Assembly (NCBI GenBank): GCA_016839745.1
Contig: JAEOTS010000035.1
Location: forward strand, 1-11,112
Reading direction: 5' to 3'
Length of the DNA stretch: 11,112 nucleotides
Source: Promethearchaeota archaeon
GTDB taxonomy: Archaea; Asgardarchaeota; Lokiarchaeia; Sigyniarchaeales; SOKP01
How positions within the stretch are numbered: the stretch's first letter is position 1; each line of letters begins with the position of its first letter. Made by a program: the position numbers and the translations under genes. Shown here piece after piece: positions 1 to 11,112 of this stretch. The notes under the pieces are model-generated. The model did not search any database and was not told the origin of the DNA. It saw only the letters and a list, made by a program, of their open reading frames with translations.

Positions 1-2
1 CC

Positions 3-1883
3 TCTCTTGGAAATAAAACAACGCTTATAACCTCAGATGTCCGACCTGTTCCTCTCCAATATAGGATCGAAATTACCCAAAATAAAGATTCCACTATTAA
101 AAAAATAATCAAGGCTACCTTAGATAATCATGGACAGATCTTAGTATTCTTAAATAAAAGAAAGTCCACGCAACAGACAGCAAGAAACCTTAAAAACTTG
201 GTTAAAACTCACATTACCGAATCTGAACTTAAAGCGTGCAAAAAAATCGAAGAAAAACTTAACGCTATTAAAGGAAGACACATAGAGCTGAAAAAAGTCG
301 TGAAGTGTGGAGTTGCTTTTCATCACGCTGGCTTGCTTCCAAAAGAAAGAAAACTGATCGAGGATTCTTATCGCAAACATTTGATAAAAGTAATATGTTG
401 TACTACTACTTTATCCGCGGGTATAAATGTTCCAGCTCGAGCGGTGATAATTAAAGACTTCAAAAGATACGTTACTTCAGGCCACAATATAAAAAATTTT
501 TCCGGATACTATGAGAACGGCGATGGTTTTTCCTACTTTATGCCATTTTCTGCCAACACCATTTTCCAAATGTTAGGAAGAGCGGGTAGACCAGGATTAG
601 ACAACGAAGGATTTGGGTACTTGCTTGTTAACAATGTAGACGAGAGAGACTGGATCGAAGACCACTACTTCCAGAACGCTTTACCCTCAGAGGTATATAC
701 ACCGAAATACAACGACTTAGTTTCGGGGCTAAACAAAATAAACACATTAAAAGAGCAGGTGCTCTTAAGAATTTACGAAGAAAAAAATATTACTTTAGAT
801 AAATTAAAAGAATTCTTTCAAAAAACATTTTTTTGGTTCCGTATCAAGGATAAGATGGAGCAAGATCAGATACCAATCGATCAACTCCTCATGATTAAAG
901 AAATTACTCCTGTGAACATACTTAAACTTCACTCGGACTCTTCAAAAGTAAAATCTTTGTCGAAAAAACGCTACAAGATTAAAATCACTAAACTTACGAA
1001 ATCTAATGTGTCAGGATACATAAAAACCGATTTCGGCGTCTTTTTCACCGAGTTCGATACTGACATAGGAATTCGATGTTCTTGCGGATTTGAAAACGGT
1101 TTGTCAAATAATTACTCTAACGAGCAGTTTTCCTTCGAGTTTTGCGATCATATTACCGCTTTTTTGCTCCACTTGATCGAAATTCCCGATAAAAACTTCC
1201 AGAAATATGTAAATGATATCGTTCCTAAATCAGTTAAGAACCAGTACGTCTTAAATTACCTTTTTGACAAGGGATTAATTGTTAAAAGAGATAACGGAAT
1301 GATTAAATGTTCGCAATTCGGAAAATTGATCATTCGGTTGTATCTCTATCCCGTTTCTGGAGTACTCATCCGACATAAGCTCGAAAATGCTGCAATGGAA
1401 ACTTTCCAAGATATTGTTAAAGAAGCATACGAGGTGTTAAAAGTAGAGCTAAAAGTACGCGACTACCGATTACTCCAACCTATCTTGGAGTGGTGCGACG
1501 AAGAACCTCTTGACAATATTATGGAACGCCATAAAATTATGACCGGGGACCTTTACACTACAAAAGACAATCTAGAAAGGATCATAACTTTTATCGGAAT
1601 AATCGCAGTCCACTTGAGCGAATCAGATCTAGATCTACAAGAAGAAATGATAAAAATAGCAGAGATTGCCGAGACACTCAAAATAAGAATTCATTACGGG
1701 ATACACGAGGAACTATTCGATTTAGTATTAAGATTAAATAATGTAGCAAGGATTAGAGCAAGGATATTGCATAACGCTGGCTTTCACACAGCAAATCAAG
1801 TAAAAAAACAAAATCCTTATGTCCTAGACAGAAAAACGGGGTTAGGAATTAATCTTTGTAAAAAAATTATCAAAGGAAAGTAA
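3..1883 (+). CDS. Ski2-like SF2 helicase, Hel308/Hjm-like, with inserted SWIM zinc finger (5'-truncated by the window edge)
   Basis: The frame is open from position 3 (SLGNKTTLITSDVRPVPLQY...GQILVFLNKRKS), so the TTG at 198 is internal. Ski2/Hel308 motifs present: RPVPL, motif IV GQILVFLNKR, GVAFHHAGL, motif V CTTTLSAGINVPA, motif VI QMLGRAGRPGLD, winged-helix end SQFGKLIIRLYLYP, ratchet region LEWCDEE/GDL, C-terminal RIHYGIHEELFDL and HhH RIRAR. Motifs I-III lie upstream of the window. Confidence 0.92.
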   Translation, partial: SLGNKTTLITSDVRPVPLQYRIEITQNKDSTIKKIIKATLDNHGQILVFLNKRKSTQQTARNLKNLVKTHITESELKACKKIEEKLNAIKGRHIELKKVVKCGVAFHHAGLLPKERKLIEDSYRKHLIKVICCTTTLSAGINVPARAVIIKDFKRYVTSGHNIKNFSGYYENGDGFSYFMPFSANTIFQMLGRAGRPGLDNEGFGYLLVNNVDERDWIEDHYFQNALPSEVYTPKYNDLVSGLNKINTLKEQVLLRIYEEKNITLDKLKEFFQKTFFWFRIKDKMEQDQIPIDQLLMIKEITPVNILKLHSDSSKVKSLSKKRYKIKITKLTKSNVSGYIKTDFGVFFTEFDTDIGIRCSCGFENGLSNNYSNEQFSFEFCDHITAFLLHLIEIPDKNFQKYVNDIVPKSVKNQYVLNYLFDKGLIVKRDNGMIKCSQFGKLIIRLYLYPVSGVLIRHKLENAAMETFQDIVKEAYEVLKVELKVRDYRLLQPILEWCDEEPLDNIMERHKIMTGDLYTTKDNLERIITFIGIIAVHLSESDLDLQEEMIKIAEIAETLKIRIHYGIHEELFDLVLRLNNVARIRARILHNAGFHTANQVKKQNPYVLDRKTGLGINLCKKIIKGK

Positions 1884-1911
1884 GAAAGACAGTTTCCAAC
1901 TCAGTCGTGAC

Positions 1912-2310
1912 TTACTTTGTTAAAGAAATCTGCTTTACCCGCTTATCCACTACAGAATCAAAGCTATGAAATAAAGTCACATCGCTTTCCCAGTGGTTTG
2001 TCAGCTTACTTCGATACTTTTCGTAAAATAATTGAGCTAAATATTCAAAATTTTCGTTTGCTACTTTATGTTTAACATGAATGGTGGAAATTCCAATAAA
2101 GAAGAACGGTTTCATTTTCCTAAAGTGTAGGCGATATTGATTCATTGAAACTTTTTGCAAATCTCGTTGGAAGCAAATGTTATAAATAGAATTTATCGCG
2201 TGAAAATAAGCACCAATAAGTGTTTCATCGCATTCCAAAAGAGAGCAATGGCTAAAAATTACCTTTCCTCCTTCTGCAAGCACAAAAAAATCTAATAAAA
2301 ATTCTGGCAT
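1912..2310 (-). CDS. Stand-alone longin-fold protein (Asgard-type)
   Basis: 132 aa with the longin pattern: N-terminal hairpin FFVLAEGGKVIFSH, helix LIGAYFHAINSI, three strands (KVSMNQYRLHFRKMKPFFFIGIS), helix LAQLFYEKY, and final W..DVTLFHSFDSVVD helix. Confidence 0.8.
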   Translation of the reverse strand: MPEFLLDFFVLAEGGKVIFSHCSLLECDETLIGAYFHAINSIYNICFQRDLQKVSMNQYRLHFRKMKPFFFIGISTIHVKHKVANENFEYLAQLFYEKYRSKLTNHWESDVTLFHSFDSVVDKRVKQISLTK

Positions 2311-2334
2311 AACAATTTTTACCAGATTTTTTGA

Positions 2335-2344
2335 TTATATAAAA
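2335..2344 (-). promoter_or_regulatory. Candidate archaeal TATA box for the longin gene (leaderless transcript)
   Basis: TTTTATATAA on the minus strand ends about 25 nt upstream of the ATG at 2310, the spacing expected for leaderless archaeal mRNAs. The AT-rich background lowers specificity. Confidence 0.45.
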
Positions 2345-2438
2345 TGATGTAATATCAAAGTAGTTGATCAACACAATTTTTCCTTTTTAAATGCTTAAGA
2401 AATTACTTACTTATCCTAAAATAAAATGAAATAACCCG

Positions 2439-2723
2439 ATGGATTCTAAAAAAGAGCAAGATCCATTTGATATTCATGACCAAAGGAAAATTAGGATAAA
2501 AGAATTTCTGGTATTTAAAGAACAGGATGACGATCAAGACAACTACATCATTAAAGAATTTGAAAAGACTAAGGAGCAGACTTTAGAAGCGCTTGAGTTC
2601 ATCCAAAAAATTATAAAAAACCATCCTGACTTGAAATCTGACCGAATAAAAGGTTATCTAAAGCGACAACGCTATTTTATGAAACTCTTTCTTGAAGAAG
2701 TCAATAAAGAATATTCCGAGTAA
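2439..2723 (+). CDS. Hypothetical protein (small, charged, probably alpha-helical)
   Basis: 94-aa ATG ORF filling a gap between genes, with K/E/D-rich composition like its neighbours. No motif recognised. Confidence 0.7.
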   Translation: MDSKKEQDPFDIHDQRKIRIKEFLVFKEQDDDQDNYIIKEFEKTKEQTLEALEFIQKIIKNHPDLKSDRIKGYLKRQRYFMKLFLEEVNKEYSE

Positions 2724-2776
2724 CAATATTTTTTGTTTAAATAAAATGAGCATTACAAAGCTGTACAACTGCAAAT

Positions 2777-3025
2777 ATGGTGAGAAGAATGGGTCTTGAA
2801 ACAGAAGAAAATAGAAAACACGATACCTTAGTAATTAAAATTTCAGAATATGAATCAGTTGAGTTAGTGCTTTCGAAGATAATAATTCCTTTTTCAGAAG
2901 TCCTGAAAGCATCCAATGCTCCCGATATTTATTTTGGAAACGAAAAAATCCCCTTTGAAAAACGGAATCCAATCTATAAGAGCATTATGAGACAAGAATT
3001 TGCCGATGCGATGCGTTCAGACTAA
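2777..3025 (+). CDS. Hypothetical protein
   Basis: 82-aa ORF (alternative ATG at 2789) with protein-like composition. Its stop overlaps the stop of the convergent gene at 3022-3025. Confidence 0.6.
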   Translation: MVRRMGLETEENRKHDTLVIKISEYESVELVLSKIIIPFSEVLKASNAPDIYFGNEKIPFEKRNPIYKSIMRQEFADAMRSD

Positions 3026-3552
3026 TTTTTTTGAGAAATTTTATAATAGAATTGTGCATCTTTTAGAGGGATTAAAAATCCCTTCTTCTTAAATTTTTTA
3101 ATAAGACGGGGTATTTCATGACTTGGGATTCCAATATCTTCAGCCATAATTTCAATCATGTACGCTGGAAATTTCCGATGAAGTTTAGAAAGGTTTAGTA
3201 AGAGAGTTTTAAATTTAAGGCTGTTATCCGGTTCGTCACTAAATTTTGCTTTAGCATAAGAAAATGATATATCATTGTTATGAATACTTTTTGTGTCAAT
3301 TATAAAATCGTTTTGTGATCTGAATTCGGGAACAGCTAATTCATTTTGCTTCCTTTTCACGGTATCTACAGCAAGTGTCATACCATGCACAATTTCTCCT
3401 TCATTTAGAACGGTTTTCACCTTGTGAGAACGCCCACATCGCAAGCACTTTTTAGTTTTCTGAGTGGTTTTCACGTATACGAACTGCTGACAGTTTTTGC
3501 ACGCGAAAATTAAATAAGGAGTTTTGTCCTTTTTGAAAACAGTTTCTTCCAC
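3022..3552 (-). CDS. DUF1922-like zinc-ribbon protein with C-terminal winged-helix domain
   Basis: YLIFACKNCQQFVYVKTTQKTKKCLRCGRSHKV has two CxxC knuckles in a DUF1922/MTH1184-like context. The C-terminal MAEDIGIPSHEIPRLIKKFKKKGFLIPLKDAQFYYKI is a typical wHTH ending. I moved the start from 3603 to GTG 3552, which lies 1 nt after the Hef stop and 8 nt after a GAGGT Shine-Dalgarno-like motif. Confidence 0.78.
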   Translation of the reverse strand: MEETVFKKDKTPYLIFACKNCQQFVYVKTTQKTKKCLRCGRSHKVKTVLNEGEIVHGMTLAVDTVKRKQNELAVPEFRSQNDFIIDTKSIHNNDISFSYAKAKFSDEPDNSLKFKTLLLNLSKLHRKFPAYMIEIMAEDIGIPSHEIPRLIKKFKKKGFLIPLKDAQFYYKISQKN

Positions 3553-3553
3553 A

Positions 3554-5719
3554 TTAGGCAACCTCGTATTCTTTTTTGGAGTGTAAATATATGTTTTTAA
3601 CAATGAAATATAATTCTTCAGGAAGGTCGATAGGAATAGCTTTCAAATCGTTATTTAAACCCCATTCTTTTATTTCTCGCTTAAGAAGTCGTTCTTCGTC
3701 TTGATATTTCTCAGAAAAGTCAACAAAATCGAAAATTGAAACAAATAGATTATATTTCTTACTCAAGTGAGAAATCTTCTTTAGCAGCGCCTCCTTTTCA
3801 AATTGATGTGGATCTAAAGCTTGGATTATGACGCGATCGAACATAGTAATGTGATTTATAGATTTCACCACCTCGAAAGGTATTTGGTCTCGTTGAAGAT
3901 TTTTTCTTATCCCGTATTTAACGGGAAGGGATTGGCTTATTTTGATTTCTGTCGTATTTTGTAATGTTTCTTTTGAGCTTGATAAATCATGTAAATAAGC
4001 CTGTAAATTGCCTTGTTTTTGGTGAGCTCCAACTTTTCTGGGGGGTTCAGAATGCGGTTCTTCTAAAGGATTTTCTTCTACTATCATTTCCTTAGGAACT
4101 TTTGTGTAAGAAGTTCGTAGCTGATGATCGCTTTTAAGGTTGATGTTCATTTTCTTTAGCTTGCTAAGAGCGATGTGCATATAAATCTCGTCGTGAGTGT
4201 CCTTGCAATAAAGAATAATAACTTTTCCTTCGCGATGGCGAGCAGTTCTTCCCTTTCTTTGGATAAATCTAATTTCTGATGCAACTACATCGTAAAAAAT
4301 AACTAGATCGCATTCTGCTATGTCTAAACCCTCTTCTCCTACGTTAGTACTCACAAGGATATTGTAATGACCTTGTTTGAACTGTTCTAATATTGCTAAC
4401 TGATTTTTCTGTGACATCCCTTTGTCGTCCTTAGATTTAGTAGATTGTCCTACAAATCTAGAGGGTCTAATAATATCTGTATTAGCGTTTTTTAACTTAG
4501 TTACTATATTTTTGACTGAATCTCGCAGTTTTACAAAAACTAAAACCCTTGATTCAGGGTTATTTTTAAACTCTTGTAAGAGAAGTTTTTCGAGCACGTA
4601 AAATTTAGGGTGTATGAGTTGCACTGGAGATAAATCCTCGTTCTTTTTTAATTCAATATAAATTTGGTTTATCCTATGGTCTGAAGCGAGTATTTTTACC
4701 GCCTTCGAGCTAGTTTTTTTTCGAGCGTCTTGTTTTACTTTTGTCAAATATATTAGTAACACATCTAAGCCTTGTTGTTCTATCAATTCAAGCATGTGAT
4801 AAAGGATTAGCGCTTGAGCGTTTACCGATAAAGCGCTGTAAACTCCCGTTTTATCTCCGTCTCCTTTTACTAGTCTAATTAACTCGGAGTTAAGCTTTAT
4901 TAAATCCTTTCTGATCACTTTAGTATGTAATTTATCTGCTCTCACATTTAAAAAACCGAGTTGAGATAAGTATTGTAAGCGCTCTTCTAAAAGAGTTTGG
5001 ACTGCTAAATAAGCATCTCCCATAAGTTCGGTGAGATTAACGCCAATTTTGTAAACATCCATAGCTTTTAAATAAGTTTTCACATCGACATCCTTTCTTG
5101 TTCGGGTATGAATGTTTGCGAGCGGTATATGTAAGTTCTTACATAGGATTTTGATCTTCTCTTTAGATGATCCTGGGCTAGCTGTTAATCCTAAAATTAT
5201 TCCATCCGGATTTTGATCAACATATTCGTCTGCGATAAGAGTGTAAGCGTAGTCACCTGTAGCATGGTGAGCCTCATCGAAAATAATTAAACACACGTCT
5301 TCTAAATTGTATTTTTTGTTGACTAAGTCATTTCGCAAAGTTTGGGGTGTGTAAAAAATGATTTGGTTTTCCTGGAATAGTTCTACTCTGTTCTCAGGAG
5401 TGGTTTTACCAGTTAACACTACGAATTGCTCTTCGGGAATTGTCATTAAATTCTTAAACGAATCGTAATGCTGGTTGATTAAAGGTCTTGTTGGTGCTAA
5501 AACTACAATTTTACTATTGGGGAGAAAATTTTCTAAAGTCCCTGCCGCTACATACACTCCGATGATCGTTTTTCCTAATCCGGTAGGAAGAACAACAAGA
5601 GAATTTTTAGATGCACATTCTTTAGCAATTTTTAACTGGTATTCTCTGTGTTCTATATGCTTCTCCCGCAAATATGTCATTTTTTTCGTAGTATTTTCAC
5701 TTTTCTCTAGTTCGAGCAC
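3554..5719 (-). CDS. hef: Hef/FANCM/Mph1-family DEAH helicase with degenerate C-terminal ERCC4-like domain
   Basis: Motifs: REYQ (Q), LPTGLGKT (I), LAPTRPL (Ia), TPQ (Ib), DEAHH (II), GLTASPG (III), HPK, VLVF (IV), RFVGQ..GMSQKNQ, STNVGEEGLDI (V), IQRKGRTAR (VI). GTG start with AAGGAG 9 nt upstream. Confidence 0.95.
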   Translation of the reverse strand: MLELEKSENTTKKMTYLREKHIEHREYQLKIAKECASKNSLVVLPTGLGKTIIGVYVAAGTLENFLPNSKIVVLAPTRPLINQHYDSFKNLMTIPEEQFVVLTGKTTPENRVELFQENQIIFYTPQTLRNDLVNKKYNLEDVCLIIFDEAHHATGDYAYTLIADEYVDQNPDGIILGLTASPGSSKEKIKILCKNLHIPLANIHTRTRKDVDVKTYLKAMDVYKIGVNLTELMGDAYLAVQTLLEERLQYLSQLGFLNVRADKLHTKVIRKDLIKLNSELIRLVKGDGDKTGVYSALSVNAQALILYHMLELIEQQGLDVLLIYLTKVKQDARKKTSSKAVKILASDHRINQIYIELKKNEDLSPVQLIHPKFYVLEKLLLQEFKNNPESRVLVFVKLRDSVKNIVTKLKNANTDIIRPSRFVGQSTKSKDDKGMSQKNQLAILEQFKQGHYNILVSTNVGEEGLDIAECDLVIFYDVVASEIRFIQRKGRTARHREGKVIILYCKDTHDEIYMHIALSKLKKMNINLKSDHQLRTSYTKVPKEMIVEENPLEEPHSEPPRKVGAHQKQGNLQAYLHDLSSSKETLQNTTEIKISQSLPVKYGIRKNLQRDQIPFEVVKSINHITMFDRVIIQALDPHQFEKEALLKKISHLSKKYNLFVSIFDFVDFSEKYQDEERLLKREIKEWGLNNDLKAIPIDLPEELYFIVKNIYLHSKKEYEVA

Positions 5720-5728
5720 TTTCTTTAA

Positions 5729-5734
5729 CTCCTT
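5729..5734 (-). promoter_or_regulatory. Shine-Dalgarno site of hef overlapping the upstream stop codon
   Basis: The minus strand reads TAAAGGAGTTAAAGAAA-GTG, where the TAA ends the 191-aa gene. This suggests translational coupling. Confidence 0.65.
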
Positions 5735-6309
5735 TATGTGATTTGTATGAGATAATCTTCTACTTCTAATTTTGTGATTAATTTTTTACTTTTATTATAA
5801 AACGATATTAACCTTCCTAATTCAACCGCGAGTTTCGAAGGATAGATCAAACCATTTCCTCTATACTCGAAGAAATACGGATGAGATCGCTTGAGCTCAC
5901 CTACCTTTCTAGAGAGCTCAGTGTTGTTTTTCTTAATATCAAATCCTTTTCCAATTTGTATGTGTTGGAAATAATACACGATGTCATTTAGCACTTTAAC
6001 TTGTGCTTGGTTAATTTCAATTTCTTTAGGCTCGTCAGTAATAAGGCTTTTTACTTCCGATTTTAACTTTAAGACTAGATAAGTTTTGTTGTTTTTCCAC
6101 TTTTTATACAGATAGAAGTCTTCAAATACCGTGCTAAATAAATGTTGAAAGCTAAAAACGATATCTAAAATCTCGTTTAGCTCTTCTTCAGACAATTTGA
6201 GATACACAGCTAACTTATCGAGATTAAACAGGGTATTTTTCCTGGTTTGGAACTTCTCCAAAGCTGATATTACTTGATGTAACTGCTTAATTATTACGCT
6301 TTGAGCCAT
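5734..6309 (-). CDS. Hypothetical protein, possible tandem winged-helix
   Basis: 191-aa ATG ORF. FNLDKLAVYLKLSEEELNEILDIV looks like an HTH followed by a hairpin (YLYKKWKNNKTYLVL). YFFEYRGNGLIYPSKLAVELG resembles a second wing. The fold call is tentative. Confidence 0.7.
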   Translation of the reverse strand: MAQSVIIKQLHQVISALEKFQTRKNTLFNLDKLAVYLKLSEEELNEILDIVFSFQHLFSTVFEDFYLYKKWKNNKTYLVLKLKSEVKSLITDEPKEIEINQAQVKVLNDIVYYFQHIQIGKGFDIKKNNTELSRKVGELKRSHPYFFEYRGNGLIYPSKLAVELGRLISFYNKSKKLITKLEVEDYLIQIT

Positions 6310-6319
6310 TATTAGTTAT

Positions 6320-6357
6320 AGAAAACAAGAAAATAAAAAGAAAAAATTTAAAAATAA
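6320..6357 (-). terminator. T-rich tract after the permease gene, candidate archaeal terminator
   Basis: The minus strand after the stop reads TTATTTTTAAATTTTTTCTTTTTATTTTCTTGTTTTCT. Confidence 0.45.
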
Positions 6358-7971
6358 TTATCTGGAGTGCTTCGCCAATCCTTCGTGCAATACGAATAAA
6401 CCAATCAAAAGAAGGAATACTACTAATCCCGGTATAAAACTAGCCCAAGGCGCATTGTACATCTGAACCCTTGCCATAGCAATAAGTTCACCAAAATTAA
6501 TTGACACAGGATCACCAAACCCTAAAAATCCTAATGCTATATTAAGTATAATAGAAAATCCAATAAACAAGGGCACGTATGCGAGTATTTTTTTTCCAAT
6601 GGGAACGATCCGGAATTCCGCACTAGCGATTATTCGTGTAAACCTGGGTACAAGTAATAAGCCAGTTGTAAATATCAAAAGTCCAATAGTGCTTCCCAAA
6701 ATCCTTGTAAAGAACATAATAATAAGTATTCCTGGCAAAACGTAAAAGATCAACATTAAACCCATGATTAAAGTATGTCCTATGTAATTAAATTTATTAG
6801 CCAACAACCCGAATATCAAACCTCCGATTAAACCAATAATAACGGTTCCGAACCCGAATAACAGAGAATCTCGCGTGCCGTATACCACTAAAGCAAGCAC
6901 ATCCCTTCCAGAATTTGTTTGTCCTAAGGGATGATCTGGTGAAGGAGGACCGAAAGGTCCAGCATAAAAGCCAATAGCTTCTTCAAAAGTGTATTCGGTT
7001 ACTAATTGAGGGAAAATCGATATGAGAATCGGTACTATAACGGCTACTAATCCAATAATAGTTAATGGGGATTTTACAAGTTTAATCCCATAATTCTTTA
7101 ACTCTATTCTAACACTACTTCTCGGCTCTCTTTCTGTGAGGTCGTCTAAATCTTTTTCTGGTTGGATATCATCCTTTAAGAATCTAATAAGGCAAAAAAT
7201 TAAGTGTGATATGAAAAGAGTGATAATAAATGCTATTAGTATCACGATTATGCAAGCTCTCAGTAATAAGATATCCAGACTGACAATAGCCGTTAGTAAG
7301 GATTGGCTAAAACCGTGTAAATTAAATATTGTTTCGATTAAAATAACATACATAAAAATTAAACCGAATACCGCACTAGTTCTAGCAGTGTTTGAAATGA
7401 TCTTCTTTTTACTATAGGAGTCTTCCGATAATTGAGAACAAGTAACTCTCGTAATTAACGCCGTAATTGCAAAGGTTAATACAAACCAAGGTAAAATATA
7501 ATGAACTATGGTATCCGCTGCTAAATACGATTCTCCTGAGATAATTGAATCTAATATCCGAAATCCGGTAACAAAAGCTGGATCCGGGTACCAAATAGTT
7601 TTATAATGAATTGCAGGAAGTATCGGTATTTGGTATGCAAACGTGTACTGTAGATACATGCCACTAAATATTATTGGAACCGCAACACCTAAAGCACCCA
7701 GTAATCTAAACCCCATCTTTATCCATCTTTCCTCGGCTCGATTTGAAATTCTGCCAAATACATATCCTATGATTGTACCGGTATATAAAGGTAAAATAAG
7801 AAATTCTATTGTGCGTGGAATTCTCGCACTCAACATTTCAATATTTTCTGCTGGTATGGTTAAGTAAAAAAGCAGAAATAAAGTTATTAATCCCGCAAAT
7901 AAAACGACTACTCCGATTACGATTGATAGTAAGAATATTATGCGATGTTTTTTATCCAATTTTTTTATCAC
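6358..7971 (-). CDS. Fused DppB/OppB-DppC/OppC-like ABC peptide/nickel permease (divergent)
   Basis: The N-half has DppB-like ARIPRTIEFL, TGFRILDSIISG...DTIVHYILP and IETIFNLHGF. A charged linker KDDIQPEKDLDDLTEREPRSS follows. The C-half has DppC-like PPSPDHPLGQTNSGRDVLALVVYGTRDSL, LGFLGFG..P..NFGELI and APWASFIPG. Many TM segments. Confidence 0.88.
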   Translation of the reverse strand: MIKKLDKKHRIIFLLSIVIGVVVLFAGLITLFLLFYLTIPAENIEMLSARIPRTIEFLILPLYTGTIIGYVFGRISNRAEERWIKMGFRLLGALGVAVPIIFSGMYLQYTFAYQIPILPAIHYKTIWYPDPAFVTGFRILDSIISGESYLAADTIVHYILPWFVLTFAITALITRVTCSQLSEDSYSKKKIISNTARTSAVFGLIFMYVILIETIFNLHGFSQSLLTAIVSLDILLLRACIIVILIAFIITLFISHLIFCLIRFLKDDIQPEKDLDDLTEREPRSSVRIELKNYGIKLVKSPLTIIGLVAVIVPILISIFPQLVTEYTFEEAIGFYAGPFGPPSPDHPLGQTNSGRDVLALVVYGTRDSLLFGFGTVIIGLIGGLIFGLLANKFNYIGHTLIMGLMLIFYVLPGILIIMFFTRILGSTIGLLIFTTGLLLVPRFTRIIASAEFRIVPIGKKILAYVPLFIGFSIILNIALGFLGFGDPVSINFGELIAMARVQMYNAPWASFIPGLVVFLLLIGLFVLHEGLAKHSR

Positions 7972-8146
7972 TTTTTTATGTTTTTGTCAATATTAAGTTA
8001 TTACGATTATTTAGATCTCATTAGTTTTAAACTTGAATGTAAAGAACCAACTCTTTTTAGAGTAGGATTTGAGAGTAAAATAGGAAAAAAAAAATAAGAG
8101 TAATTATTTTACGATAGTCTTTTCCTTGTCTTTATTTTTTTAAAGA

Positions 8147-8154
8147 TTTAAATA
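8147..8154 (+). promoter_or_regulatory. Candidate TATA box for the small HTH gene
   Basis: TTTAAATA ends 25 nt before the ATG at 8180. AT-rich background. Confidence 0.35.
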
Positions 8155-8179
8155 ATTTAGCATATTTTTTATAAAGATT

Positions 8180-8395
8180 ATGAAAGAAATTGATAGTGTT
8201 GAATATTTTGATATTAATGAGATTATTAATGAGATTCGCGAAATGATCCATAAGGAGATAAGTGCAGAAGAAATAAGAGAGTATTTTGAAGAAGGTATAA
8301 TTATAGGAAAAAAAATAGAAAACGAGTGGTATGGGAGTCAAAATGCGATCGTTGACCTCTCTATTGAATTAAAAGGGAAAGACATAGAGTTTTAA
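8180..8395 (+). CDS. Small excisionase/MerR-like (HTH_17-type) helix-turn-helix protein, acidic
   Basis: Pattern YFDINEI...ISAEEIREYFEEGIIIGKKIENEWY fits the Xis/HTH_17 consensus Y..EA...+S..T+R.++..G.+.g.K+G..W. Confidence 0.65.
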   Translation: MKEIDSVEYFDINEIINEIREMIHKEISAEEIREYFEEGIIIGKKIENEWYGSQNAIVDLSIELKGKDIEF

Positions 8396-8475
8396 AAGTA
8401 TATCTTTTAAATTTGTAGCTTAGATCATTTAAAATTAAGAATAAATGAATTTAATTAAATGCTCTATATTTTATT

Positions 8476-8488
8476 AAAAAAAAAAGAA
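8476..8488 (-). terminator. Oligo-T terminator
   Basis: The minus strand reads TTC followed by T10 immediately after the TAA of the large membrane-anchored protein gene. Confidence 0.6.
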
Positions 8489-11110
8489 TTATTTGATAGC
8501 AGATTTTTGCTTGTTTTTTGCTTTTTCGGAGTATTTCGTTTTCGAAGTTGTAAAGACTACACCTAAAGGCGCCCCTATCATAGCAATAATTAAGGGAAAA
8601 GTAATGAGCGCATCGTTTTCATACCCTTCAAGCGTTTGATCTCCCGGGATGGGTCCAGCACCCGTGTAGGTAAAGCTCGTATCCATAACGAATTGTGAAC
8701 TGGAGTGATAGGGATCGTCTAGGTAAAGTTCAAAATCGTAGATTCCACTGTAGGAAGGTCGATACACCAAACAAAACTCGGTGCTCTGCAATCCGTTATC
8801 CGAAGTTAAAAATACGGTGTCTATATAATTGTCACCTCTATAAACATGGGCAAACATCGAGCCATCAAATATTGGTTGTTCTCCTGAAGCAAAGCGATGA
8901 GAAGCATTTACTATTATCTCTATGATTGACTCTGTTTTTGAAATGGAAATCCCGTAAATAGTATCAAAATTAGTGTTAAACGAGATAGATGATTGCGCTA
9001 CCTTAGTGCTCCCGTCATAAACAAATAATTCCCCTATAATTACCGGATAATTGTTTGGATCCACTGGGATATGAATCTCTTTTTGGTGAGTATGATTAAT
9101 CATTTGGTCAAACACGATTGTTCCGAGTTGTACACTCTCCAGCTTAACCGTCGTGTACTGACCGAAATCCGAAAGAATTAGGTTATCTAAATCAACAGAA
9201 AAGGTATTACTACTCCCTAAAGTGGTGGATTTAGAATATCTAGCGTTTATCCTTACTTGATCGTTTTTTGCCATTTCACACACCCACAAAAATGCTTCTT
9301 GTTCAAGGATAGTTCTTTCCGTAGTTAAGTAAAACTCGTTGTAAATATTTGAATAAATCGATTGGATTAAGAAATGCGTTTGTTCTATATCAAACGTAAT
9401 CGATATGTCTAAAGCGTCTGAAATTTTGTAGCAGTAATATAAGTTTTTTATATTGGAATAGTTCAGATTATTTATCACAAAATTTTCAATTTTGTTAACA
9501 TCCAAACTGAATTGACCAAGAGTTTCTAAAATGTAAATTGAGTAGTATAAATTTTCTAAGGCTAACTCGACTGAATCAGAATAATCAACTTCAAAGTATA
9601 ACTCCGTTGGAGACTCTATTATGTTTCTAACGATATACGTCGCTAGAGCCGTTCTATCAAAACCTAAATCTGAAAAGTAGAGTCCTGTAATACTACCGAG
9701 AGATAAGAAATCATCGATAAGTTCCATGGCATTGATCGCGTAAAAAGAGTATTTTAAATAAATCAGCTCGTTTTTTCGCTCTGAAGAGTAACCTGCGTCA
9801 TTGAAACAGAAAGCTCCAAAATTTTGTGTGTATAATGGATCGAGAAATTGGGAATCAATTACATTTTGTAAGACAATATTCAAGTCATAACTAGCAGCGA
9901 AGTCGTTTAGCTTATAAATTTTATTCAAAGCATCAAGAGTTTTAAAGATATCTTTATTAGAATTTATTGAGTTCATATCTTCGATATATTTGTGGTAACC
10001 TGTAGAATAATAATCGATCGGTTTCGTGCGGAAATTCGCTTTAGATAAATCAAGGTTTGTACAAGCAAAAAAATCGTACTCTCCATCACTTTCCTTTACC
10101 GTTCCCTCTAAAAGATCGTATAATACTTGGATATTTAACTCACCTAGACGATCAAAATGTTCATAGGAGGATACAACATTATGAATTAGATCCACTGAAG
10201 TATAATCCTCTGACAGCAATGAGTAGCCATTATTTTGAGAAAAGTAATCTATGTATTGCTGTATTTCATCTTTTTCACTTATAGTTAATACTGAAATATC
10301 ACCGGTGTTTAAAAGCGAGCGGGTTATTTGGAAAGTATCTATTAACTCGTGAATCTTCACCGTTGTAGACGCTTCCCAACCTCCAAGATAAAACCGATTA
10401 TTTAAAATAAAATTTATTACCTCGGGTCGATCAAAATTAGTGAATCCCGTAATATCTGACAACTCTAAACCTATCGCAGTCGCTACAATATTAGAATAGT
10501 TAGAAACCCAAACCATCGAGGCCAAATCGAAATAAAACTCACCAGGGTGATAAAGGCCGGTTAGATCTTGGTGGAACTTATTTTTGTCTATTACATCTAC
10601 ATAGGCAGTCCCGAACGTTTCTAAAGTCTTAATGCAGTAATAGGAAGCGAACTGATTGGGTTCAATTTCCATTAGTGAATCAAACAAAGGTTCGTTATCG
10701 TTATAAAATCCCGTACTAGAACTTAGAGATTGCAAATTTTCAATATAGGAGACAATATCGCTTCTCTCTTGAGAATATTGGTTCCAGTCTATACCAAGTA
10801 AATCGAGCGTGATCACTGCATAATAGGTGTTATCAGCTGTAGGAATCTTGAATCCCTCGTCTAAAGAGGAATCGTAGGGTTGGCCAATAAAACCATGAAG
10901 ATTAGGATGATAACAATCCCAGATAAAATCAATCATTTCAGCAACATCTATTTGGTTCAAACTGTTTAAGAGATTCAAAGAAAGTACGGCGTAGCAATTA
11001 ACCTCTAACAAAGTAGATAATGGAAGATATCTACGTGGTATCACAGATGCTAAATATCTTAATGAGTTCTCGTCTAAAAATTGATACGAACTTGAATTAT
11101 AAAAGGAAAG
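8489..11110 (-). CDS. Large membrane-anchored protein with prenyltransferase/squalene-oxidase-like alpha/alpha repeats, C-terminal beta-sandwich region and single TM helix (5'-truncated by the window edge)
   Basis: The frame stays open upstream of GTG 11044 to the window end (LSFYNSSSYQFLDENSLRYLAS-VIPRR). About ten repeats of type G-F/W...TYYAV.TL..LG (NTYYAVITLDLLG, ASYYCIKTLETFG, DTFQITRSLLNTG, YSFYAINAMELID, NLYYSIYILETLG). Beta-rich region at about 8650-9259. TM ALITFPLIIAMIGAPLGVVF (8552-8611), then a Lys-rich tail. Confidence 0.85.
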   Translation of the reverse strand, partial: LSFYNSSSYQFLDENSLRYLASVIPRRYLPLSTLLEVNCYAVLSLNLLNSLNQIDVAEMIDFIWDCYHPNLHGFIGQPYDSSLDEGFKIPTADNTYYAVITLDLLGIDWNQYSQERSDIVSYIENLQSLSSSTGFYNDNEPLFDSLMEIEPNQFASYYCIKTLETFGTAYVDVIDKNKFHQDLTGLYHPGEFYFDLASMVWVSNYSNIVATAIGLELSDITGFTNFDRPEVINFILNNRFYLGGWEASTTVKIHELIDTFQITRSLLNTGDISVLTISEKDEIQQYIDYFSQNNGYSLLSEDYTSVDLIHNVVSSYEHFDRLGELNIQVLYDLLEGTVKESDGEYDFFACTNLDLSKANFRTKPIDYYSTGYHKYIEDMNSINSNKDIFKTLDALNKIYKLNDFAASYDLNIVLQNVIDSQFLDPLYTQNFGAFCFNDAGYSSERKNELIYLKYSFYAINAMELIDDFLSLGSITGLYFSDLGFDRTALATYIVRNIIESPTELYFEVDYSDSVELALENLYYSIYILETLGQFSLDVNKIENFVINNLNYSNIKNLYYCYKISDALDISITFDIEQTHFLIQSIYSNIYNEFYLTTERTILEQEAFLWVCEMAKNDQVRINARYSKSTTLGSSNTFSVDLDNLILSDFGQYTTVKLESVQLGTIVFDQMINHTHQKEIHIPVDPNNYPVIIGELFVYDGSTKVAQSSISFNTNFDTIYGISISKTESIIEIIVNASHRFASGEQPIFDGSMFAHVYRGDNYIDTVFLTSDNGLQSTEFCLVYRPSYSGIYDFELYLDDPYHSSSQFVMDTSFTYTGAGPIPGDQTLEGYENDALITFPLIIAMIGAPLGVVFTTSKTKYSEKAKNKQKSAIK

Positions 11111-11112
11111 AA

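Follow-up and report, generated by a model that had tools for sequence, protein, structure and literature searches.

A SWIM-type zinc module within the winged-helix domain of a Hel308-family helicase paralogue of Asgard archaea

The subject of this report is a helicase gene at the start of an 11,112-nucleotide window of Asgard archaeal DNA (Promethearchaeota archaeon, GenBank assembly GCA_016839745.1, contig JAEOTS010000035.1, positions 1 to 11,112 of the forward strand), the window being an entire contig (C182) of a 3.5-Mb genome bin that is 32% G+C and 89% complete. The gene, at 3..1883 on the + strand, encodes what looks like a working superfamily 2 (SF2) motor with the domain order of Hel308, its helix-hairpin-helix (HhH) domain included, and the winged-helix domain of this motor is split by a SWIM-type zinc module. 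The anatomy and family placement of the protein we hold with high confidence. The fuller reading, that a Hel308/Hjm-type motor carries the SWIM-type module as a docking surface for a recombination partner, is one that we favor with moderate confidence, and the docking function taken by itself is a tentative proposal whose prospects we put a little short of even. The literature searched contains no mention of a SWIM module, whether in Hel308 or in Asgard Ski2-like helicases, and the SWIM-bearing Hel308 subfamily is undescribed in the papers that we found; public records name these proteins “DEAD/DEAH box helicase” or “putative ski2-type helicase.”

The insert (about 130 residues; 131 as delimited here, 855..1247, + strand) sits between winged-helix helices 2 and 3, after FFQKTFF and before LNYLFDKGLI, and its layout is taken from an AlphaFold2 (AF2) model and from homology to the inserts of other Asgard helicases. 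It opens with three short helices (IPIDQLLMIKEITPVNILKLHS), continues as a four-strand beta meander (975..1079, +; residues 325-359 of the product P0001, as assigned by DSSP on the models) that ends at the first Cys, and closes with two helices. The first ligand pair is C-S-C at 1077..1085 (+; tgt tct tgc, C359 and C361) and the second is C-D-H at 1143..1151 (+; tgc gat cat, C381 and H383), at the N terminus of a helix; both are direct readings of codons in the frame 3..1883. Between them lies a spacer loop of 19 residues (1086..1142, +; GFENGLSNNYSNEQFSFEF), acidic and aromatic, conserved within the window’s family and modeled with low confidence. Modeled by AF2 on its own (45-row alignment; predicted local distance difference test score, pLDDT, 81.6; predicted template modeling score, pTM, 0.77), the insert runs in the same order, from three short helices through the four-strand meander to CxC, then a poorly defined 22-residue segment, the helix that starts from CxH (residues 382-393, ITAFLLHLIEI), and a second long helix. 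The alignment to Hjm of Pyrococcus furiosus breaks precisely at the insert, and in a joint alignment 16 canonical Asgard Hel308 proteins have zero residues at the site. A sequence-only reading of the window had placed C-S-C and C-D-H at these positions, 19 residues apart, with a meander before and a hydrophobic helix after, in a module that splits a winged-helix region left whole in characterized Hel308/Hjm proteins; the codons, the model, and the alignments agree with it on each point. The conservation of the four ligands, which it had named as a check, was likewise borne out: C359, C361, C381, and H383 are the sole invariant columns among 39 Asgard inserts that range from 11 to 83% identity to that of the window. 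Because only the four ligands are invariant, this comparison argues that the pattern is more than chance, and the module is predicted to bind a single zinc through all four.

The identification of the insert as SWIM-like is carried by its relatives, since many Asgard genomes outside the Lokiarchaeales encode a second Hel308-like protein (described below) with an insert at the same site, and some of those inserts are recognized by the Pfam SWIM model (PF04434). Six of 17 match it at E <= 1, and the best passes outright, with 27.7 bits for the whole protein and 31.1 for the insert alone against a cut-off of 19.6; this one comes from genome G005, and the protein is 99% identical to one named as from Baldrarchaeia whose public precomputed Pfam list contains PF04434. 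When Lokiarchaeal inserts were compared with non-Lokiarchaeal ones by hhalign, the probability was 98.8% (E 7.3e-17, 114 columns), with both ligand pairs in register. Such homology to inserts that pass Pfam SWIM argues that the Lokiarchaeal insert is a divergent SWIM module, its spacer grown to 19-22 residues. Spacers measure 19-22 residues in the window’s family of the Lokiarchaeales (f1 hereafter); in the remaining Lokiarchaeales families, f2-f4, they span 12-23, and elsewhere among Asgard lineages 7-14. The model also has the form of a SWIM fold, strands and then a helix: CxC closes a strand and CxH opens the helix. Its top match among 48,161 representative chains searched with VIA-align is ZSWIM8 (9rwz_M; Z 6.2, a value that is middling in absolute terms; root-mean-square deviation 3.5 A over 90 residues), the second-best chain reaching Z 3.8 and the Shu1:Shu2 complex Z 3.1. 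The match spans chain residues 114-288, within which lies the segment, at about residues 170-210, that should contain the SWIM finger of ZSWIM8. In the ESM atlas, SWIM-named clusters came first (score 0.93, 179 of 256 features shared, 22 of 30 hits). Taken with the homology, these matches sustain the claim of the sequence-only reading that the insert is of SWIM type.

The window insert thus has in common with the SWIM finger as otherwise known (PF04434; ZSWIM8, Shu2/SWS1, MuDR/FAR1, and bacterial SNF2 proteins) the pattern CxC-xn-CxH, with CxC ending a strand and CxH starting a helix. Unlike the typical case, the module is internal to an accessory domain of a helicase, neither terminal nor free-standing, and its family’s spacer of 19-22 residues exceeds the usual 6-16 (PMC5727457). 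Short-spacer SWIM proteins are also present in the Lokiarchaeales: proteins of ~305-345 aa with CSCPDxxxPCKH, scoring 30-38 bits, were seen in 28 of 61 genomes, and at E <= 0.001 none was found in the window’s own genome.

The open reading frame (ORF) that carries the insert is open at the 5′ end of the window, and its product P0001 is a partial protein of 626 aa (626 codons plus stop), its best homologues being 839-aa proteins that are 92% identical. Positions 10938-11064 of contig C171 are identical to window positions 1-127, a 127-nt overlap of contig ends; the helicase gene is split between C171 and the window by an assembly break and is not a truncated gene. The missing ~213 N-terminal codons, which encode Walker A GSGKT, DEIH, and SAT, are at the C171 end and bring the joined ORF to ~839 aa. 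More than 120 database homologues of ~840 aa are 65-92% identical, and the named ones are all from Loki-, Prometh-, Hermod- or Hodarchaeota. The portion in the window comprises, on the + strand, the end of RecA1 and the whole of RecA2 (3..722; Pfam Helicase_C at residues 96-198, and Hjm alignment), with motifs V (TTLSAGINVPA) and VI (QMLGRAGRPG) intact and, by alignment columns, invariant among relatives; the first part of the winged-helix domain (723..851), with helices 1-2 ending in FFQKTFFWF, which aligns to Hjm up to residue 447 and to canonical Asgard Hel308; and, past the insert, the second part (1248..1352), with helix 3 LNYLFDKGLI, the wing, and SQFGKLIIRLYLYP, aligned with canonical Asgard Hel308. 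There follow the ratchet domain, or domain 4 (1353..1700; Hjm alignment, and Pfam Helicase_dom4_arc at residues 462-566, sub-threshold here and above threshold in homologues), and the C-terminal HhH domain 5 (1701..1880), where Hjm 568-697 aligns through to the C terminus. HHH_5 is matched by Pfam in 6 of 12 relatives; the Thorarchaeal second-paralogue helicases tested gave no HHH_5 match, and the Lokiarchaeal protein keeps domain 5.

The best match among proteins of known structure is P. furiosus Hjm/Hel308 (E 2.7e-82), which aligns on both sides of the insert: query residues 22-495 pair with Hjm 7-447 and residues 698-837 with Hjm 568-697, and between the two blocks the query has ~80 residues more than Hjm. 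The SF2 motifs and the order RecA1-RecA2-winged helix-ratchet-HhH are all present, as judged by motifs, the Hjm alignment, and Pfam matches in homologues. The top NCBIfam matches of P0001 are four Hel308 equivalogs at 233, 181, 171, and 168 bits, all below the equivalog thresholds (NF040935, NF002654, and related; cut-offs 887-1216). With the archaeal enzymes of known structure (P. furiosus Hjm 2ZJ2, S. solfataricus 2VA8, A. fulgidus 2P6R), the window helicase shares SF2 motifs and five-domain order, and it is likely to share their role in fork repair and recombination; what sets it apart is the winged helix split by the ~130-aa SWIM-type module, for a net gain of ~80 residues over Hjm.

A winged-helix insertion in a Ski2-like helicase has a precedent in RNA metabolism, since Mtr4 and Ski2 carry their large arch in the same domain (PMC10946056), and the likeness, at the domain level, raises the possibility that the window protein is an RNA helicase whose insert plays the part of the Mtr4/Ski2 arch or its KOW, docking RNA-processing adaptors. 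A weak Pfam DSHCT match in the window helicase would fit. However, that arch is a stalk plus KOW, and neither Pfam nor the fold search finds an arch (PF13234), stalk, or KOW match in the insert; moreover, domains 4 and 5 are arranged as in Hel308/Hjm, which also supplies the best matches, and the neighbors of these genes belong to DNA recombination and repair. We regard an RNA role as very unlikely. The archaeal ASH-Ski2 helicases, which like the window helicase join a Ski2-like motor to a zinc module with Cys ligands, had been named in the sequence-only reading as an already described family into which the architecture might fall. That finger differs in being N-terminal and of four-Cys, CxxC...CxxC type, and there is none in the N terminus of the window helicase on C171. 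Moreover, the ASH-Ski2-like gene of the same genome is a separate one (C93:39006-40043, L005; 892-906 aa, N-terminal CKSC...CSDC, DEAD, Helicase_C, and DUF5814), so the architecture is not that of ASH-Ski2.

The extent of the subfamily emerged from a search with the Hel308 profile NF002654 over 121 Asgard genomes at least 90% complete. Most genomes outside the Lokiarchaeales have a canonical Hel308 (ORF of 725-800 aa, 750-926 bits over the full profile), and the same genomes also carry a second ORF of ~730-790 aa that scores 310-370 bits. All 20 second ORFs fetched have CxC-x7-14-CxH at residue ~512-582, and in the joint alignment their motif, helices, and strands fill the same winged-helix gap as the window insert. 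Thor-, Odin-, and Baldrarchaeial helicases carry homologous, shorter-spacer inserts at this position. We had considered the insert to be confined to the Lokiarchaeales, a notion abandoned once the profile search showed other Asgard families to have a second paralogue that bears this motif. In an IQ-TREE maximum-likelihood tree of 63 proteins, with insert columns removed and rooted on ASH-Ski2-like proteins, the SWIM-bearing helicases form one clade (ultrafast bootstrap 94; Shimodaira-Hasegawa approximate likelihood ratio test, SH-aLRT, 83) whose sister group is canonical Asgard Hel308 (100/99). A Lokiarchaeales group is also recovered (99/93). Sampling is confined to Asgard archaea, with no non-Asgard or eukaryotic sequences, so the tree leaves the duplication undated. 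Since the window protein falls in the sister clade, outside canonical Hel308, it is best read as a Hel308-family paralogue and not as the canonical orthologue. The distinct Hel308 subfamily proposed by the sequence-only reading is recovered here as a clade apart from both canonical Hel308 and ASH-Ski2.

A combined insert profile matches the module in 218 of 400 Asgard genomes. The module was counted in 100 of 134 genomes of f1 and in 81 of 89 of f31-f33 (mostly f31, Thorarchaeota), in every genome of f21 (6/6), f9 (3/3), and f26 (3/3), and in none of those of f13 (0/31), f15 (0/12), or f18 (0/12); roughly ten in f1 are weak matches (E about 1e-5 to 1e-6), which in the two genomes checked fall on small non-helicase ORFs. 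Searched against 5.8 billion proteins, the non-Lokiarchaeal insert profile recovered nothing but helicases of ~730 aa, and fragments, named as Thor-, Odin-, or Baldrarchaeia, and the window insert searched against 1.8 billion representatives returned 11 clusters, of which the full-length ones (~840 aa) all match at ~500-630 and the rest are fragments. One copy, 71% identical to the window insert, lies on a short contig (G057:C266) of a genome in the otherwise module-free family f16, beside that genome’s own canonical Hel308; with 7% contamination in the genome, it is likely a mis-binned Lokiarchaeal contig. Thorarchaeota also have a third relative (L160, L161, and L164, from G340, G323, and G312), of 738-753 aa and 20% identical to the second paralogue over 561 aa. 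It has no Walker A or DExH and keeps the SWIM motif CSCESWKYQG..HRLCKH (Pfam SWIM, 16.5-16.9 bits), by which it is a predicted motor-dead copy that retains the finger.

Within f1, canonical Hel308 is found in none of the 33 sampled genomes at least 90% complete. Their best Hel308-profile scores reach at most ~340 bits, and in the NF002654 search that match is the SWIM helicase itself. The window’s own genome, in which the sequence-only reading had suggested looking for a canonical hel308, behaves alike: its best profile match is the window gene, and the next is the ASH-Ski2-like ORF on C93. Since no canonical Hel308 turned up in the sampled genomes, f1 appears to have retained the SWIM paralogue alone, which seems to replace the ordinary enzyme. 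The sister family f3 retains a divergent canonical-type Hel308 as well. In the survey of Batista et al. 2024, Hel308 was scored as “absent” in 13 of 15 Lokiarchaeota genomes, and incomplete assemblies were given as the cause (PMC10946056). A divergent SWIM paralogue that scores far below the Hel308 cut-offs may be a reason for the gap.

The docking proposal is drawn from the genes that accompany the subfamily. In six 20-kb Thorarchaeal loci from six genera, a collinear same-strand series runs RadA-like (HhH plus Rad51, 182 bits), XPD-type, a 778-aa protein (unk778), SWIM helicase, a 488-aa protein (unk488), AAA_25, and short Rad51-like. The conserved same-strand cluster in these loci (L166-L169, L172, and L173) totals about 14 genes, and unk778 and unk488, considered as hidden helicase paralogues, were rejected for want of similarity to the second paralogue. 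A short Rad51-like ORF lies directly downstream of the SWIM helicase in f21 genomes. In the closed 6.0-Mb genome G138 (f3, L176), one strand at 7739-13617 reads RadA (254.6 bits), a 123-aa ORF, a 268-aa AAA protein with a stop that overlaps the start of the helicase gene, the SWIM helicase itself, and a nuclease with an ERCC4 domain, and G143 is similar. The f1 genome G171 has RadA on the helicase strand no more than about 1 kb upstream, separated from it by one small ORF at most. In all, the RadA context covers Thorarchaeota, f21, f3, and two genomes of f1. A 3.5-Mb genome has about four RadA-family genes, so that one within 10 kb of the helicase would be expected by chance at ~2% of loci; as related genomes are not independent, the comparison is indicative and does not amount to a test.

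A second, more local association is seen in f1 itself. Its conserved neighbors in the window (3022..6309, - strand; identified by Pfam) are a 191-aa ORF, a Hef-like helicase, and a DUF1922 Zn-ribbon protein, the helicase being a Hef/FANCM-like protein of 721 aa (3554-5719, -) with DEAD, the helical bundle PF21210, and Helicase_C; Pfam gives no ERCC4 match in its last ~200 residues. The divergently oriented block on this side (small ORF, DUF1922, Hef-like, 191-aa ORF) recurs in 5 of 8 f1 loci from 4 genera, and on the opposite side of the f1 helicase stand a divergent 603-aa HhH protein and three further ORFs. Among the loci compared, the Hef-like arrangement is not conserved outside f1, and with conservation limited to f1 the Hef-like neighbor was dismissed as a general partner.

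From these contexts we propose that the protein would be a DNA repair or recombination helicase acting on stalled forks or recombination intermediates, in which the zinc-stabilized SWIM module would stand out from the ring and offer a docking surface. The docking partner would most likely be a recombination protein such as RadA or a RadA paralogue, or alternatively, in f1, the neighboring Hef-like helicase complex, and the docked module might steer or regulate the motor. An AF2 model of the full-length fragment (pLDDT 59) is too poor to position the insert on the ring. The module could instead be a nucleic-acid sensor, binding branched or duplex DNA at a fork junction and altering substrate choice with no protein recruited. 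The winged-helix domain of Hel308 contacts DNA, so the insertion site itself lends this some weight, as does the strand region before CxC, which is Lys-rich in f1 (net charge mean +2 over Lokiarchaeales inserts, +4 in the window). SWIM was, moreover, originally predicted to bind DNA or proteins, a prediction cited in PMC5727457. On the other side, the fold searches matched no known DNA-binding fold, the net charge of the whole module is about zero (mean +1 in Lokiarchaeal inserts, and at -1 slightly acidic in non-Lokiarchaeal ones), and the f1 spacer loop is acidic. We think the sensor unlikely, if worth keeping in mind. Because the module is near neutral and the f1 loop both acidic and aromatic, a protein partner is favored, and a generic DNA-binding role seems less likely.

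In eukaryotes the SWIM protein SWS1/Shu2 partners RAD51 paralogues, and HELQ partners the RAD51 paralogues of BCDX2. The Asgard helicases resemble these systems in that a SWIM module and a Hel308/HELQ-type motor are tied to Rad51-family paralogues, the Asgard relatives being clustered with RadA-like and Rad51-like genes. They differ in that SWIM and motor share one polypeptide, that the likeness to Shu2 is at Z 3.1 only, and that the Asgard tie is one of gene neighborhood, with no RadA-like neighbor in the window. The module could specifically dock RadA paralogues, one Asgard polypeptide merging roles that eukaryotes split between SWS1/Shu2 and HELQ; this is a speculative extension that we consider rather improbable.

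A number of observations weigh against the reading of the insert as a SWIM module for docking. The direct check that the sequence-only reading had called for failed, in that Pfam SWIM gives no match at E <= 10 to P0001 or to the isolated insert. For 11 relatives it is absent, at the same E, from the Pfam families listed (25 of 35 families), and the helicase insert is left unmatched in a six-frame search of its own genome and in 61 Lokiarchaeales genomes. With the insert model, Foldseek against the PDB returned nothing at E < 0.37, and a profile of 31 Lokiarchaeal inserts run against PDB sequences gave chance-level matches alone. The modest ZSWIM8 score and the Asgard-only tree, both noted above, are to be counted here as well. 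The Pfam failure likely reflects the reach of the profile and not the fold: the SWIM spacer is typically 6-16 residues, with 59 in Shu2 (PMC5727457), and the Lokiarchaeal insert, at 19-22, is probably missed for that reason. The failure, which extends to every Lokiarchaeales insert, could also mean that CxC...CxH belongs to a different class of zinc finger that merely resembles SWIM, and hhalign gives only a weak match (P 0.0023, probability 12%) to the ~315-aa bona fide SWIM proteins of the Lokiarchaeales. Yet even this weak alignment places both ligand pairs in register, the homology to inserts that do pass Pfam SWIM is strong, and the best named matches of the fold search are SWIM proteins, with ZSWIM8 at the top and Shu2 listed; the ESM atlas likewise favors SWIM. 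A different finger class is in our judgment highly improbable.

Ligand loss is a further difficulty. In Ca. Harpocratesius repetitus FW102 (L101/L177) and in G137 (L102), the layout and site of the insert are kept with no Cys or His at the ligand positions, and a second copy in G138 (L104) keeps CxC and the third Cys with Tyr in place of His (CxC...CxY). Since such ligand-less inserts are retained, at least part of the module’s role has no need for zinc. The retention in these three cases, together with a spacer that drifts from 7 to 22 residues, is what would be expected if the insert were structural decoration with no specific ligand, zinc-stapled, fixed early in the paralogue, and kept for folding or stability. 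That account sits poorly with the N-terminal insert helices (IPIxQLLxIKEI..NILKLHS) and the f1 loop, which are strongly conserved besides the ligands, and with the module’s persistence in the motor-dead Thorarchaeal paralogue, which points to a function of its own; we find it quite unlikely that decoration is the whole story.

Distribution and context also count against the docking reading. Twelve of the 33 high-completeness f1 genomes, some of them 97-100% complete, have neither the SWIM helicase nor canonical Hel308, and with about a third of high-quality genomes lacking a copy, the SWIM helicase is not universal and not indispensable. Genomes with neither form include G268, G261, G240, G159, and G168. 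The neighborhood of the gene varies between lineages, and there is no RadA-family gene on the window or on C171, both of which are only ~11 kb; in this genome, RadA family members are on contigs C119, C140, C86, and C2. The link to RadA-paralogue function that the sequence-only reading had suggested has contextual support, from the gene neighborhoods of Thorarchaeota, f21, f3, and two f1 genomes, and finds no counterpart at the window locus itself. Even so, docking by a SWIM-type module remains the reading that we favor.

Two other ORFs of the window complete its annotation. A 132-aa ORF (1912-2310, -) has a weak longin-domain match (Fuz_longin_1, 22.2 bits, below cut-off), and an 851-aa protein (8489-11044, -) has prenyltransferase-like alpha-alpha toroid repeats and a C-terminal hydrophobic segment and is conserved close to the helicase in several f1 genomes.

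Beyond what the sequence-only reading had foreseen are the Asgard-wide subfamily, its coexistence with canonical Hel308 outside the Lokiarchaeales, and the loss of ligands in one sublineage. The analysis further brings to light the long-spacer form of the Lokiarchaeales, which in f1 appears to have taken the place of canonical Hel308, and derivatives devoid of the ligands. There is a practical lesson in detection, since the Pfam SWIM model misses the long-spacer form entirely, and the reported Hel308 gap in Lokiarchaeota may have in the divergent SWIM paralogue an alternative to incomplete assemblies. The wider interest is that Hel308/HELQ helicases and the complexes of SWIM proteins with RAD51 paralogues are central to the control of recombination in eukaryotes and are poorly understood. 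A SWIM module in an Asgard-wide Hel308 chassis, often amid RadA-like genes, suggests a way of aiming a repair motor at recombination intermediates, and if the module does dock RadA paralogues, the partnership between SWIM proteins and Rad51 paralogues would date back to the archaeal ancestors of eukaryotes.

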